Assembly: GCA_001029675.1 (NCBI GenBank)
Contig: CP011210.1
Location: 256,193-320,192 of the forward strand
Length of the DNA: 64,000 nucleotides
Direction of reading: 5' to 3'
DNA from: Candidatus Beckwithbacteria bacterium GW2011_GWC1_49_16
GTDB lineage: Bacteria; Patescibacteriota; Microgenomatia; UBA1400; CG1-02-47-37
Positions 5,178 to 10,299 of this stretch are shown one piece after another; within the stretch, counting starts at the first letter, position 1, and every line of letters begins with the position of its first letter. The position numbers and the translations under genes are program-made. The notes beneath the pieces are model-generated. The model did no database searches. It worked only from the letters and a program-made list of their open reading frames with translations, and was not told the origin of the DNA.

Positions 5178-5179
5178 AG

Positions 5180-5250
5180 CAGGGGCGGCAGGAGTCGAAC
5201 CTACAGTCCGGGTTTTGGAGACCCGTGGTTTGCCATTAACCGACGCCCCT
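5180..5250 (-). tRNA. tRNA-Trp (anticodon CCA)
   Basis: Reverse complement folds as a cloverleaf. Acceptor AGGGGCG pairs with CGCCCCT. Anticodon loop is CUCCAAA. T-loop is GGTTCGACTCC. Confidence 0.85.
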
Positions 5251-5337
5251 ATGAGGCTATTTTAACACGAAGTGGGTTTCGAGCCAGCCACCTATTGACA
5301 AGCGCATTTATTTTCGGGTATTGTTTGTATAGAGGAT

Positions 5338-6111
5338 TTGAGTATGAGGTGGGATAAAGTTATAGTTCACAAAGCTAGGAAATTAAGAACAGGAGGAAGA
5401 ACCTATTCAGAAATAAATGCTCAGCTGGGAGTTAATGTGCCGAAATCTACTTATAACTTTTGGTTTAAAGACTTAATTTTGCCAGAGTCGTACTACAAAA
5501 GAATTGAGAAGTTAAATAAGAAAAATTTTAGTAAGGCGATTCGGGCGGCTCAAAAGATAAACAGGGAAAAATTGATGGCCAGGATTGATAGGCTTAGGGG
5601 TAAAAATAAACACTTGGTTGGTAGAATTGACAAGCAAACAGGAAAATTGCTTTTGGCAATGTTGTATCTGTGTGAAGGGAATAAGTATCCTTCCCATCAG
5701 GCTCTGCGGTTTGGCAGTTCCCATCCGGCAATGTTGAGATTGTTCATTGCTTTATTAAGGAGTTGCTTTAGGCTTGATGAAAATAAAATTAGAGGAGAGT
5801 TGCAATGCCGGGCCGACCAAGATACAAGAAAGCTGCAAAAATTTTGGAGTAAGGTAACAGGAATTTCCTTAAGTAGATTCTATCCAGCAAGAATTGATAA
5901 AAGGACAATAAATAAGCCGACAAAAAAGAGAGATTACAAGGGAGTTTTTGTTGTCAATTACTTTGACGTAGAAGTACAACTTGAGTTACAATTACTGGGT
6001 GAGTATTTAGGAGAAGAAGGGCCCGTAGCTCAGTTGGTAGAGCGCCTGCATGGCATGCAGGAGGTTTCAGGGGTTCGAGCCCCCTCGGGTCCACAGTTTA
6101 CTTCAACTTAG
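5338..6111 (+). CDS. HTH-domain protein with a LAGLIDADG-like motif (putative homing-endonuclease-like). The ORF runs in-frame through tRNA-Ala
   Basis: N-terminal HTH (RTYSEINAQLGVNVPKSTY). LLAMLYLCEGNKY resembles a single LAGLIDADG motif with an acidic residue plus Gly. No stop codon before the tRNA, so the last 30 codons are tRNA sequence. Confidence 0.35.
   Translation: MSMRWDKVIVHKARKLRTGGRTYSEINAQLGVNVPKSTYNFWFKDLILPESYYKRIEKLNKKNFSKAIRAAQKINREKLMARIDRLRGKNKHLVGRIDKQTGKLLLAMLYLCEGNKYPSHQALRFGSSHPAMLRLFIALLRSCFRLDENKIRGELQCRADQDTRKLQKFWSKVTGISLSRFYPARIDKRTINKPTKKRDYKGVFVVNYFDVEVQLELQLLGEYLGEEGPVAQLVERLHGMQEVSGVRAPSGPQFTST
6019..6093 (+). tRNA. tRNA-Ala (anticodon GGC)
   Basis: GGGCCCGTAGCTCAGTTGGTAGAGCGCCTGCATGGCATGCAGGAGGTTTCAGGGGTTCGAGCCCCCTCGGGTCCA; G3:U70 identity pair present; anticodon loop AUGGCAU. 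Confidence 0.85.
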
Positions 6112-6271
6112 TGGTTTCTTTGTGCAAGGTGTGCTGGCGGCAAACCTTGCAGTATTTTTTTAAAGATAGCTTTTCGGTAGTGGTGGTGCGGTTCTTTTGG
6201 GAAATGTAGTTTTGGGAACCGCAGACAGAGCACTTAAAAGCGATTAAAATTCTTGGTCCTTTTTTAGCCAT
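6098..6271 (-). CDS. rpmG: 50S ribosomal protein L33
   Basis: Hand translation gives MAKKGPRILIAFKCSVCGSQNYISQKNRTTTTEKLSLKKYCKVCRQHTLHKETTKLK, with the Cys4 zinc-ribbon pattern of L33. It is below the 60-aa cutoff of the ORF track. Confidence 0.85.
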   Translation of the reverse strand: MAKKGPRILIAFKCSVCGSQNYISQKNRTTTTEKLSLKKYCKVCRQHTLHKETTKLK

Positions 6272-6361
6272 ACTTCGACTCCTTCCAGTCGCTCAGTACA
6301 AGTAATATTCAGAGGCCAATTGTAACAGATTGGTTTGTACTGAGCAATTTAATGCGAAGTG

Positions 6362-6434
6362 AGCCGAGACCGGGAATCGAACCCGGGACCTCGAACTTAC
6401 CATGTTCGCGCTCTACCGACTGAGCTATCTCGGC
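6362..6434 (-). tRNA. tRNA-Thr (anticodon GGU)
   Basis: Reverse complement is GCCGAGATAGCTCAGTCGGTAGAGCGCGAACATGGTAAGTTCGAGGTCCCGGGTTCGATTCCCGGTCTCGGCT. Anticodon stem is CGAAC/GTTCG and the loop is AUGGUAA. Confidence 0.8.
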
Positions 6435-6474: not shown

Positions 6475-7134
6475 TTACGCCAGCCGTCTAACTTTTTCCA
6501 GCACTGCCTGCCAGTTTTTACAGGGAACGATGTTGATATCCGAGCGGGGGGCCTGGTCGGGGTAGTCGTAAAGGAACAGAACTCCTTGATAGTTTTTAGA
6601 CAAATCTTTAGCTAGCTGGGGGTGGTCGTCGACCATACCGATTACCTGGGGGTAAAGGTATTCTAAGACTTTGGCTTTCCAGGAGAGGCTTTCCGGGAGT
6701 TTAACTCCGGGGGTGCGGTAGGCGACTTCGGCTTGGGGAAAGCCGTATTTTTTGAGCCAGACTCGGGTGCCGGGCATGACCGACTTGGACCGGGCGGTAA
6801 GATAAACCACCACCGGGATAATTTGGTGAATTTGGTTGACGATGTGGTTGGCGTTTTTGATTAAGGGAAAATCGCGATGGAGTCTGTCGTCGTGGCGGAC
6901 TTGCTTTTCCCAGGCGCGAACCTCTTTGCCGCTCCAGTAGGGAGCATAGTAGGAGTAGCGGTATTTTTGTTGTACTTCTTCCACGCTCAAACCTTCGGGG
7001 TTGCCGAATTTTTCCATCAAACCTTTGATCCAAAAGTCACCGGTGCGGGCCAAGGTGTCGTCAACGTCGACGGCTAAACCCTTGAGTTTCTTTTTCTTGA
7101 GCTTGGCTTTAAGGTCTTTGATAAATGGGTGCAT
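6475..7134 (-). CDS. HAD-superfamily hydrolase
   Basis: DVDDTL (DxDxT motif I) near the N-terminus; 219 aa. Confidence 0.6.
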   Translation of the reverse strand: MHPFIKDLKAKLKKKKLKGLAVDVDDTLARTGDFWIKGLMEKFGNPEGLSVEEVQQKYRYSYYAPYWSGKEVRAWEKQVRHDDRLHRDFPLIKNANHIVNQIHQIIPVVVYLTARSKSVMPGTRVWLKKYGFPQAEVAYRTPGVKLPESLSWKAKVLEYLYPQVIGMVDDHPQLAKDLSKNYQGVLFLYDYPDQAPRSDINIVPCKNWQAVLEKVRRLA

Positions 7135-7780
7135 AGTTTAATGATTATAGCAACTTGTGATAAATTATCCTCTATGACGATAATAGAACGGGAAAGGGCG
7201 GGTGTGGCTCCAAGACTTGATGAGGCCCAAGGTTTGATAGTCGAGCTTAGTCAACGGTTGGAAACAGGGCTGGCGTTTTTGCTGGTTGATGGTCCGGTGG
7301 CCAGCGGTAAGACAGAGTTGGTTAAGGGGTTGAAGAGCGAATTTAATGGTCTTATGGGTGGGGTCGAGCCCACAGTAATTGAGGTTGACTGGGCAGTGCA
7401 GTCGCGAGAATATAGGAGTCAACATCCAGAAAAGCTTAATCGACACCAGGCTTGGTTCAGGCTGCACCGCCATTATGGTCTTCTACATCAGTATTTAAGA
7501 GGACAAGAGAATGGGGAATTAAGCATTACTCATAAAAATTTTTACCAAGCACAAAGTCGAACCAATAACTATTATGGTGGAGGCACCTTTGGAAGACAAA
7601 GTAAGGCGAATAAGGGAGAGAGCCAGGGCAAGAAATCAGGACCCCGATGAGCAGGAGAGGCGGATGCTAGAGGTGTTTGAAAAGGATTGGCTGTCAAGGC
7701 GGGAAGAGGTGTTGGCTCTGGCTGGTGGGGTGGCAGACTCAACCGAGGGGGAGTTTTTAGTGAGAAGGAATGGGGACTGA
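7129..7780 (+). pseudogene. P-loop NTPase / nucleoside-kinase-like gene split by a +1 frameshift (ORFs 7129-7650 and 7574-7780)
   Basis: Walker A LLVDGPVASGKTELV in the first ORF. The first ORF ends in low-complexity junk while the overlapping frame 7574-7780 reads as normal protein. Confidence 0.35.
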
Positions 7781-7831: not shown

Positions 7832-8395
7832 ATGTTAAAGATTAAGTTATATAAAGATTTACCTGAGGAGTTGAGATCAAAATATTCTAAACTGAAGAGG
7901 GGTGTTTTTGTTGGTGAAGCTCAGGAAGAAGAAGATGAGGGAATTGAACACGAAGAGGAATATTGTAGTGAAGCAGATCTTATCTGTTATTTAATTGCTT
8001 ATGAGGATGAGGAGATAATTGGGGGCTTAGAATTATTTAAAAGGAGGATTAAGCATCTTAATCAATTGATAATTTTAGGTGGGATTGGTAGTCTTTGGGT
8101 GAGAAAAGACAAAAGAAGGAGGGGTTTAGCTACAAAACTACTAAAGAAAGTAATGGAGGAATTAAAGATAAAAGGCTGTGAGGTGGTTTATTTATGTACT
8201 GATATAGGGAAATTAAAAAGTCTATATGCCCAAGTTGGCTTTGTGCCTTTAAAAAAGAATTATACTTTTGTAGGTAGGTCTGGGAAAAGATATTTTAAAG
8301 ATGACGGTATGATTGCTTTCATAAAACCTAAGGAAACTTTAAGGAAGATAGTTAAGAGTAAAGAACCATTCGATATTGGAGTAGGTAATTGGTGA
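7832..8395 (+). CDS. GNAT family N-acetyltransferase (AT-rich, probably horizontally acquired)
   Basis: RRRGLATKLLKKVMEEL acetyl-CoA-binding motif; codon usage visibly more AT-rich than the flanks. Confidence 0.7.
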   Translation: MLKIKLYKDLPEELRSKYSKLKRGVFVGEAQEEEDEGIEHEEEYCSEADLICYLIAYEDEEIIGGLELFKRRIKHLNQLIILGGIGSLWVRKDKRRRGLATKLLKKVMEELKIKGCEVVYLCTDIGKLKSLYAQVGFVPLKKNYTFVGRSGKRYFKDDGMIAFIKPKETLRKIVKSKEPFDIGVGNW

Positions 8396-8401
8396 ATTTG
8401 A

Positions 8402-8511
8402 TTGCCGAATTTTTCCATCAAACCTTTGATCCAAAAGTCGCCGGTGCGGGCCAAGGTGTCGTCAACGTCGACCGCTAAACCTTTGAGTTTCTTTTTCTTG
8501 AGTTTGGCTTT
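8402..8511 (-). pseudogene. duplicated 5' fragment of the HAD hydrolase gene, about 95% identical to 7001-7110
   Basis: Encodes ...KLKGLAVDVDDTLARTGDFWIKGLMEKFGN but lacks the start codon, and the C-terminal part diverges. Confidence 0.7.
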
Positions 8512-10067: not shown

Positions 10068-10111
10068 TGAATGATTATAAAATTTTAGCTGGTTGGTTGC
10101 CAGCGGTATAG

Positions 10112-10194
10112 TGCTGGGGCCAGGGTTCGAACCTGGGTAGGCTTGCGCCGCGAGTTTTACAGACTCGTGTGTTTGACCACTCCACCACCCCAGC
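10112..10194 (-). tRNA. tRNA-Tyr (anticodon GUA), type II with a long variable arm
   Basis: Reverse complement is GCTGGGGTGGTGGAGTGGTCAAACACACGAGTCTGTAAAACTCGCGGCGCAAGCCTACCCAGGTTCGAACCCTGGCCCCAGCA. Confidence 0.85.
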
Positions 10195-10225
10195 GTGAGA
10201 ATATTTTAGCAGATTTTGTTTGGGG

Positions 10226-10299
10226 AGCCGCCTTTCGGATTCGAACCGAAGACCTGCTGTTTACAAAACAGCTGCTCTGGCCGGCTGAGCTAAGGCGGC
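10226..10299 (-). tRNA. tRNA-Thr (anticodon UGU)
   Basis: Reverse complement is GCCGCCTTAGCTCAGCCGGCCAGAGCAGCTGTTTTGTAAACAGCAGGTCTTCGGTTCGAATCCGAAAGGCGGCT. Confidence 0.8.

Follow-up and report, generated by a model that had tools for sequence, protein, structure and literature searches.

A candidate family of selfish genes whose reading frames run into tRNA genes in the Candidate Phyla Radiation

T4 SegB is a free-standing GIY-YIG homing endonuclease encoded in a tRNA cluster, where target recognition proceeds via tRNA gene sequence and involves the T-psi-C motif, and its gene is inherited together with flanking tRNA DNA (PMC2330249). Genomes of the Candidate Phyla Radiation (CPR, or Patescibacteria) are rich in homing endonuclease genes, which have been reported in rRNA insertions and introns (PMC11270868) and in tRNA introns (PMC13011429). 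The present analysis concerns an open reading frame (ORF) in a 64,000-nucleotide stretch of Candidatus Beckwithbacteria bacterium GW2011_GWC1_49_16 (GenBank assembly GCA_001029675.1, contig CP011210.1, positions 256,193 to 320,192), hereafter the window, together with the family of related ORFs across CPR genomes. The window ORF (5344-6111, plus strand) has no stop codon before the adjacent tRNA-Ala(GGC) gene (6019-6094, plus strand) and reads the whole length of that tRNA in frame, as an earlier note on this DNA had pointed out. Such an ORF-tRNA arrangement is not mentioned in the study of Patescibacteria tRNA introns (PMC13011429), and no description of the family was found in the literature on CPR rRNA and tRNA insertions and introns, including the title and abstract of PMC11270868. 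The comparative data are best explained, at roughly even odds (about 0.5), by a family of selfish, site-specific genes that occupy the 5' ends of tRNA genes and spread in a homing-like manner with the tRNA as 3' homology arm, the window copy being an old resident that has lost an early stop codon.

The ORF and its tRNA are joined in a highly regular manner. A one-genome-per-species scan identified 145 CPR genomes with a relative of the window ORF, of which 80 loci were kept, giving 81 with the window (individual loci and homologous proteins are designated below by L and P numbers, respectively). In the window and in 77 of the 80 loci (78/81 in total), the ORF is followed immediately on its 3' side by a tRNA-Ala(GGC) gene of the same orientation; the three exceptions are two contig ends and one locus with reversed order (L063). 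When stop positions were counted from stop-to-stop ORFs in the 78 loci with the ORF upstream of tRNA-Ala(GGC), the stop codon fell inside the tRNA in 58, and in another 17 it lay within 15 nt of the tRNA 5' end, with its last base between 15 nt upstream and tRNA position 1. In 34 of the 78 loci, the last base of the stop codon is tRNA position 10, such that the stop is U8-A9-G10 of the tRNA itself; in 22 loci it falls at positions 13-29, and in only two, L047 (position 80) and the window (position 93), does it lie beyond position 30. The stop is located further upstream in three loci (L039, L065, and L005). This run-in of the ORF to the tRNA is far beyond chance. An independent sample drawn from metagenomes points the same way: among 316 full-length family proteins, 46% have G-x at the C terminus, corresponding to GGC-CNN (tRNA-Ala bases 2-7), followed by TAG. 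Full read-through of the tRNA, as in the window, therefore represents a rare extreme (2/78). The frame of the window normally stops at a TAG formed by tRNA positions 13-15, and because the D-loop of the window tRNA has CAG there, the ORF crosses the entire tRNA and gains a 30-residue tail. The closest relatives likewise read CAG, and similar tRNA-encoded tails occur in P0002-P0015 and P0021.

Some loci depart from this arrangement in their details. In L065 (4654-4736), a partial copy of the tRNA-Ala 5' end, GGGTCGTTAGCTCA, lies at the ORF end before the intact tRNA, and in L005 (4022-4166) two such partial copies, GGGTCTGTAGC and GGGCCTGTGGC, occupy the equivalent place; 70-135 nt of hairpin-containing sequence separates the partial copies from the intact tRNA in these two loci. 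In a sister locus (L080), the ORF stop is only 4 nt from the tRNA. In L063 (1700-2600), tRNA-Ala(GGC) comes first, with a TTGACA...TATACT promoter of its own and a hairpin, followed by the family promoter TTGCAC-N17-TACAAT and then the ORF, with no tRNA 3' of the latter. The gene directly after this ORF encodes a product beginning MSFSIGIVGLPNVGKST, read as a putative GTPase P-loop.

The junction is not restricted to tRNA-Ala. The main clade resides on tRNA-Ala(GGC), and divergent clades reside on tRNA-Val(GAC) and tRNA-Arg(CCU). P0105 and P0106, which at 28-32% identity were the most divergent homologs of the first search, are associated with tRNA-Val(GAC): the ORF stop TAG coincides with positions 8-10 of this tRNA in L108, and the ORF extends 35 nt into it in L106. 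In L061, a 209-aa paralog (hmmsearch E 2.7e-25), encoded on the strand opposite to an Ala-type ORF, ends in ...AAG CCC TCG TAG, where tRNA-Arg(CCU) begins with the G of AAG and has TAG as its bases 8-10; this tRNA-Arg paralog lies a few hundred bases from the Ala-type ORF, which has its own tRNA-Ala. Besides L061, no further ORF in the loci matches the family profile, though 45 loci carry tRNA-Arg(CCU), and at least two tRNA-Val(GAC) genes in the loci (L014 and L035) leave no room upstream for a family ORF. A constant position beside a conserved target, as in free-standing homing endonuclease genes, is thus found for tRNA-Ala in 78/81 loci and, with the same junction, for the Val and Arg paralogs. 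Compaction of an ancestral operon would hardly account for three paralog clades that follow a single junction rule on three tRNAs, and a site-specific element that occasionally re-targets would be expected to leave such a trace. The partner tRNAs (Ala-GGC, Val-GAC, and Arg-CCU) are isoacceptors whose codons can be read in part by another tRNA.

The family is large and appears to be overlooked. While 107 homologs of the window ORF were found initially, a profile of the C-terminal domain matched 2,882 protein clusters at 90% identity (E<=1), and none of the best 120 of these matches carried a Pfam domain. When 1.84 billion cluster representatives (50% identity) were searched exhaustively with HMMER, 3,278 matched at E<=1e-3, 1,344 at <=1e-10, and 164 at <=1e-30. 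Members were found only in CPR/Patescibacteria, and none of those listed, which cover the best 150 of these 3,278, has a Pfam annotation. All contigs retrieved by an exact look-up with rpmG came from the same species and shared an identical interval of 920 bp. In four of eight same-species contigs (L081-L084, from three NCBI assemblies and one JGI metagenome), the ORF was not called as a gene, the 920-bp interval having the same length; the missing calls presumably arise because the ORF overlaps the tRNA, and gene callers that forbid such overlap probably hide the family.

A second line of evidence concerns the history of the ORF relative to its surroundings. Three loci (L054, L052, and L027) share a segment running from the -35 hexamer TTGCAC to near tRNA base 8. 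For the pairs L054/L052, L054/L027, and L052/L027, respectively, nucleotide identity is 33%, 27%, and 31% in the upstream flank, rises to 79%, 82%, and 79% from promoter to ATG and 81%, 81%, and 79% in the ORF, then amounts to 60%, 57%, and 93% in the tRNA body and 21%, 34%, and 32% in the downstream flank. ORF clusters at >=65% identity mix different tRNA D-arm types, and homologs at 57% and 50% identity occur in unrelated contexts. The history of the ORF is therefore decoupled from that of its flanks and its tRNA. Across all pairs, ORF identity and tRNA identity are uncorrelated (rho 0.03), a comparison rendered uninformative by the saturated divergence of tRNAs among species representatives. 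The ORF is also compositionally distinct: its GC content is below that of the flanks in 77/78 loci, and the window ORF, with 37% GC against a mean of 48.7%, falls in the 1.5th percentile of equal-sized windows. In L054 (3861-3936), a tRNA-like cloverleaf with a 9-nt anticodon loop lies just 5' of the ORF promoter, and its first 11 nt (GGGCTCGTGGC) are identical to those of the tRNA-Ala 790 nt downstream, with 0 such matches expected by chance; neither ARAGORN nor Rfam recognizes this structure, which folds with a z-score of only -1.75.

Relatives of the window at the level of gene neighborhood further distinguish the resident from the variable parts of the array. Five look-ups were made via homologs of the neighboring 438-aa protein, of which one (L097) was informative, one (L110) was without tRNAs, and three lacked conserved synteny. 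L097, from Microgenomates, encodes a homolog 63% identical to the 438-aa protein and contains, on one strand, tRNA-Thr(TGT), tRNA-Tyr, tRNA-Thr(GGT), rpmG, tRNA-Ala(GGC), a GIY-YIG ORF, and tRNA-Trp, with no homolog of the window ORF in this array. Since L097 has tRNA-Ala(GGC) without the ORF, the tRNA belongs to the array and the ORF is its variable part; relative to L097, tRNA-Ala is inverted together with the ORF in the window and in L089. The earlier note had proposed that a mobile cassette was inserted between rpmG and tRNA-Trp, bringing or targeting a tRNA gene. An ORF-less relative does exist, and targeting of the tRNA fits the comparative data; rpmG and tRNA-Trp are nevertheless still separated in L097 by tRNA-Ala(GGC) and the GIY-YIG ORF, which speaks against the two genes having been adjacent and against the cassette having brought a tRNA that is resident there. 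The GIY-YIG ORF of L097 (6818-7006, minus strand; 62 aa; PF01541, E 4e-12), located between tRNA-Ala(GGC) and tRNA-Trp, represents a small nuclease-type gene of a different kind within this tRNA array. In L110 (6357-6545; Microgenomates; 438-aa homolog 61% identical), rpmG lies 9 nt from the 438-aa gene and no tRNA occurs in 11 kb, indicating great fluidity of the rpmG and tRNA neighborhood within this group.

Between the window and L089, whose ORFs are 74-77% identical, tRNA-Ala(GGC) is 94.7% identical, compared with 67.6% for tRNA-Trp, 84.2% for tRNA-Thr(GGT), 86.5% for tRNA-Tyr, and 67.5% for tRNA-Thr(TGT). The ORF-linked tRNA is thus unusually conserved in a group whose tRNAs otherwise diverge fast.

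Under the selfish-gene reading, the protein would bind DNA through an N-terminal helix-turn-helix (HTH), dimerize through a long helix, and cut or recombine ORF-less copies of the target tRNA gene near the 5' end, after which repair from the ORF-bearing copy would bring the ORF in, as in homing. With the tRNA serving as the 3' homology arm, the ORF could pass from one tRNA-Ala allele to a divergent one and, on rare occasions, to a different tRNA with the same UAGCUCA 5' D-arm. The ORF and the tRNA would be co-transcribed, and processing by RNase P would generate a non-stop mRNA, keeping protein output low and inversely tied to tRNA maturation via non-stop mRNA rescue. The position of the stop codon 3' of the RNase P cleavage site in most members means that an ORF transcript processed there loses its stop. 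Promoter-like sites are compatible with more than one route to the tRNA. Such a site, often TTGCAC(A)-N16/17-TACAAT, is found no more than 90 nt from the ORF start in 48/81 loci versus 6.7% of control windows, and a second one, within the 3' end of the ORF and at most 75 nt from the tRNA, is present in 29/81 loci versus 6.7% of control windows. The window contains both, TTGACA-18-TATTGT upstream of the ORF (5295-5324, plus strand) and TTGACG-18-TACAAT within its 3' end (5963-5992, plus strand), the -10 hexamer of the latter ending 27 nt before the tRNA; this internal site also occurs at -56 in L089, L093, and L094. The tRNA may accordingly be produced by read-through as well as from the internal promoter.

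Several observations weigh against the selfish-gene reading. Searches with Pfam, NCBIfam, PHROGs, PADLOC, PDB sequence profiles, and Foldseek revealed no nuclease or recombinase domain, so that catalysis is purely postulated. No closely related filled/empty pair was found, and the lone ORF-less tRNA-Ala(GGC) site detected belongs to the distant L097. A metagenome scan with the window-type tRNA-Ala allele yielded five contigs, all of which (5/5) contain the ORF. No phage copy was detected in an IMG/VR scan or by tblastn against phage records, plasmids not having been searched, and no general target-site duplication or terminal repeat is evident; the tRNA 5' end is repeated upstream of the ORF in just 5/80 loci, most of which are explained by a neighboring tRNA gene. 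ORF GC tracks host GC (r = 0.86), indicating that transfers are neither frequent nor recent. The ORFs in the 80 loci look intact, and a 74%-identical homolog (P0002, L089) lies in the same synteny as the window, which implies that the window copy is old and speaks against a recent insertion.

The last three of these points would equally suit a long-resident host gene, and the strongest rival explanation, which we regard as unlikely but worth serious consideration, is a vertically inherited HTH regulator or tRNA-related enzyme forming an operon with an accessory isoacceptor tRNA, the overlap reflecting extreme genome compaction in CPR and the patchy distribution reflecting repeated loss. Between the window and L089, the ORF product is about as conserved (~75% protein identity) as rpmG (~77% by our own count). 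The very large size of the family (3,278 clusters) and its conserved promoter-like elements are also in keeping with a host function, and the partial redundancy of Ala-GGC, Val-GAC, and Arg-CCU could mean that these are regulated accessory tRNAs. However, compaction leaves unexplained why three paralog clades end at U8-A9-G10 of three tRNAs, and a vertically inherited operon does not account for ORFs that share 80% identity while their tRNAs share 57-60%, or for the loss of similarity exactly at the promoter and at the 5' boundary of the tRNA. Nor does it explain the partial tRNA 5' copies of L065 and L005, or the genes without a family ORF, which comprise the tRNA-Ala(GGC) of L097, two or more of the tRNA-Val(GAC) genes, and every tRNA-Arg(CCU) in the loci except one.

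The protein itself was examined with a family alignment of 33 members, each of which was also scanned singly against Pfam at E<=10. AlphaFold modeling on this alignment gave a predicted local distance difference test score (pLDDT) of 89.7, and the C-terminal domain alone reached a pLDDT of 92.4 with a predicted template modeling score of 0.85. In the numbering of the 257-aa form, the protein comprises an N-terminal three-helix HTH (residues 7-42; 5356-5463, plus strand; helices 7-18, 23-30, and 36-42), a single long helix (residues 50-94; 5485-5619, plus strand; pLDDT >90) that may act as a dimerization or spacer element, and a C-terminal alpha/beta domain (residues 99-224; 5632-6009, plus strand), the extent of which is based on family alignments and the domain model. 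The HTH noted earlier is borne out by the three predicted helices and by weak N-terminal matches to HTH_23, HTH_28, HTH_SB, and HTH_7 in 3-6 of the 33 members; a profile search of the PDB additionally gave a weak match of this region to the PAI subdomain of Sleeping Beauty (E 0.11). Elements of the C-terminal domain follow the order H-E-H-E-H-E-E-H in both AlphaFold models, with helices separating strands 1/2 and 2/3. Invariant residues include E113 (codon 5674-5676, in LYLxEGxK), R158-A-D160-Q161, D187, R189, and Y200-x-G-V, a set of acidic, basic, and Tyr residues that resembles an enzyme active site. The tRNA-encoded tail of the window ORF has a pLDDT of ~53 and is probably disordered.

Comparisons with known proteins were largely negative. 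The window protein has no Pfam or NCBIfam match at E<=1; PHROGs returned weak HTH-type matches only, and PADLOC none. Foldseek searches of the PDB with the full and domain models (50 hits listed per search) gave no match at E<=1e-3, the best among those listed being OmpA-like, IspF, and FtsZ C-terminal domains with template modeling (TM) scores <=0.42. These comparisons do not support placing the protein in any known nuclease family.

A less likely rival than the host gene, and in our judgment an improbable one, is a transposase- or recombinase-like enzyme that uses site-specific recombination or transposition, instead of double-strand-break homing, to insert at the 5' ends of tRNAs. Its HTH resembles those of transposases and resolvases, the invariant Tyr200 and the nearly invariant Ser128 are possible nucleophiles, and the inversion of the module relative to the array between the window and L097, the reversed tRNA-ORF order in L063, and the short duplicated tRNA 5' copies in L065 and L005 could all be products of recombination. 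Yet no DDE, serine-recombinase, tyrosine-recombinase, or HUH domain was detected by Pfam or Foldseek, Ser128 is replaced by Ala in P0021, and the tRNA 5'-end duplications are rare, as described above; the window also lacks terminal inverted repeats, containing no inverted repeats >=30 nt.

The LAGLIDADG label suggested by the earlier note for the window ORF was rejected on the basis of sequence comparison and structural modeling. The LAGLIDADG core consists of a helix, two strands, a helix, two strands, and a helix, an a-bb-a-bb-a pattern; both AlphaFold models instead have a-b-a-b-a-b-b-a, and neither Foldseek search placed a solved LAGLIDADG enzyme among its 50 listed PDB hits. By sequence, a Pfam scan at E<=10 matched no LAGLIDADG model to any of the 33 members, comparison of the family profile with I-CreI by hhalign yields a probability of 0.2%, and no such enzyme emerged from profile searches of PDB sequences. 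E113, invariant in the 33 sequences at the end of the LAMLYLxEGxK helix, is reminiscent of the acidic end of the LAGLIDADG motif, a feature that does not define the family alone. In BFVD, weak matches comprise a Bodo saltans virus 'Homing endonuclease' (E 0.095, probability 0.97, root-mean-square deviation 4.0 over 115 columns) and two intein-size phage proteins at E ~0.9. A single-motif LAGLIDADG cassette that brought tRNA-Ala and inserted between rpmG and tRNA-Trp is therefore very improbable, the acidic helix end and the BFVD matches being set against the failed Pfam and hhalign comparisons, the wrong topology, a best listed TM score of 0.42 (OmpA-like domains), and the residence of tRNA-Ala(GGC) in the array of ORF-less L097.

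At the window locus, the ORF is a real gene, given an annotated identical protein, its homologs, the residues invariant across 28-75% identity, and the confident family model. Its product is 100% identical to hypothetical protein UX85_C0003G0154 of Candidatus Beckwithbacteria bacterium GW2011_GWB1_47. The likely start is ATG 5344 (255 aa), preceded 7 nt ahead by AGAGGA as Shine-Dalgarno sequence and matched by homologs that likewise begin MRWDK; a TTG at 5338 would give 257 aa. The stop is TAG 6109-6111. The last 30 codons (GPVAQLVERLHGMQEVSGVRAPSGPQFTST; 6019-6108, plus strand), taken in the earlier note to be tRNA sequence throughout, comprise 25 codons of tRNA and five that overlap the 3' end of rpmG in antisense, the final 14 nt of the ORF (6098-6111) being antisense to that gene. 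The tRNA-Ala(GGC) gene itself (ARAGORN; Rfam 60.4 bits; no encoded CCA) carries the features tested for a functional tRNA-Ala and is predicted to be one: it has a cloverleaf and a GGC anticodon, and its 5' GGGCCCG pairs with CGGGTCC to give G3:U70, followed by A73.

The surrounding array agrees with the order described earlier, a minus-strand series of tRNA-Thr, rpmG, and tRNA-Trp with the plus-strand ORF and tRNA-Ala(GGC) in between, as established by ARAGORN, Rfam, and Pfam/NCBIfam. A divergent tRNA-Trp(CCA) lies on the 5' side of the ORF (5179-5250, minus strand; ARAGORN; Rfam 57.1 bits), and rpmG, encoding ribosomal protein L33, is convergent with the ORF and tRNA-Ala (6098-6271, minus strand; PF00471, E 5e-20; TIGR01023, E 2e-21). 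Upstream in the minus-strand array are tRNA-Thr(GGT) (6361-6434) and the pair tRNA-Tyr and tRNA-Thr(TGT) (10111-10299), all found by ARAGORN and Rfam. The sole minus-strand terminator-like hairpin between rpmG and tRNA-Trp is located at 5387-5408, within the 5' part of the ORF, suggesting that rpmG transcription may cross tRNA-Ala and most of the ORF in antisense. Elsewhere in the window, a 110-nt direct repeat (7001-7110 and 8402-8511; 96% identical) duplicates the 5' end of an HAD/LNS2-like gene (6475-7134, minus strand). The two copies bracket a 1.4-kb segment containing an ORF (7129-7650) and a GNAT acetyltransferase gene (7832-8395), with 33% GC against the window mean of 48.7%, and this segment looks like an insertion with a duplicated target.

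A broader proposal, advanced tentatively and with less than even confidence, is that these genes represent a new enzyme superfamily, selfish and specific for tRNA genes, whose catalytic fold is unrelated to those of known homing endonucleases. The invariant U8-A9-G10 of the target tRNA would complete the reading frames, such that site choice, termination, and RNase P processing would be coupled, and separate clades would have been re-targeted to Ala-GGC, Val-GAC, and Arg-CCU. If the selfish-gene reading is right, CPR would carry a widespread, overlooked class of tRNA-targeting mobile genes, together with a new DNA-targeting protein family that has tRNA genes as natural targets. It would also offer a clean natural case of a protein gene borrowing the stop of a tRNA, with implications for RNase P processing, non-stop mRNA decay, and selfish-gene dosage. 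The idea of a mobile element, which is partly supported, reaches well beyond the single window locus, and a tRNA-targeting family could help explain the heavy rearrangement of tRNA arrays in CPR genomes. Should the protein prove to be a host factor, its dedicated attachment to particular isoacceptor tRNAs would still represent new tRNA biology.

Known systems share individual features with this family. Genomic islands and prophages that integrate at tRNA genes do so through tyrosine or serine recombinases acting on the 3' half of the tRNA; these elements bring kilobases of cargo with them and leave att repeats behind. Both they and the window family would use specific tRNA genes as landing sites; the latter, however, comprises just one 0.7-kb gene situated at the 5' end of the tRNA, and neither a recombinase domain nor regular repeats are present. 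Mitochondrial tRNA punctuation provides another parallel: protein genes abut or overlap tRNAs, tRNA processing sets the mRNA ends, and polyadenylation completes the stops. There, as in the window family, the coding region enters the tRNA and processing at the tRNA 5' end cuts the mRNA at or before the stop. Punctuation is a genome-wide strategy in mitochondria, in contrast to the single gene family considered here, in which processing would remove the stop. Within the same organisms, the LAGLIDADG genes of CPR rRNA insertions (PMC11270868) and the HNH genes in group I introns of Patescibacteria tRNA-Asn (PMC13011429) likewise exploit conserved structural-RNA targets. They belong to known families and reside inside spliced introns or insertions, whereas the window ORF has no intron and lies outside the mature tRNA save for the overlap. 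The closest documented analogue in behavior is T4 SegB. SegB differs in having a recognizable GIY-YIG domain and no overlap with a tRNA, whereas members of the window family place their stop inside the tRNA, occur in cellular CPR hosts, and are only presumed to cleave. The two nevertheless share a free-standing, intron-less existence among tRNA genes, and the ORF-less array of L097 itself holds a small GIY-YIG ORF.

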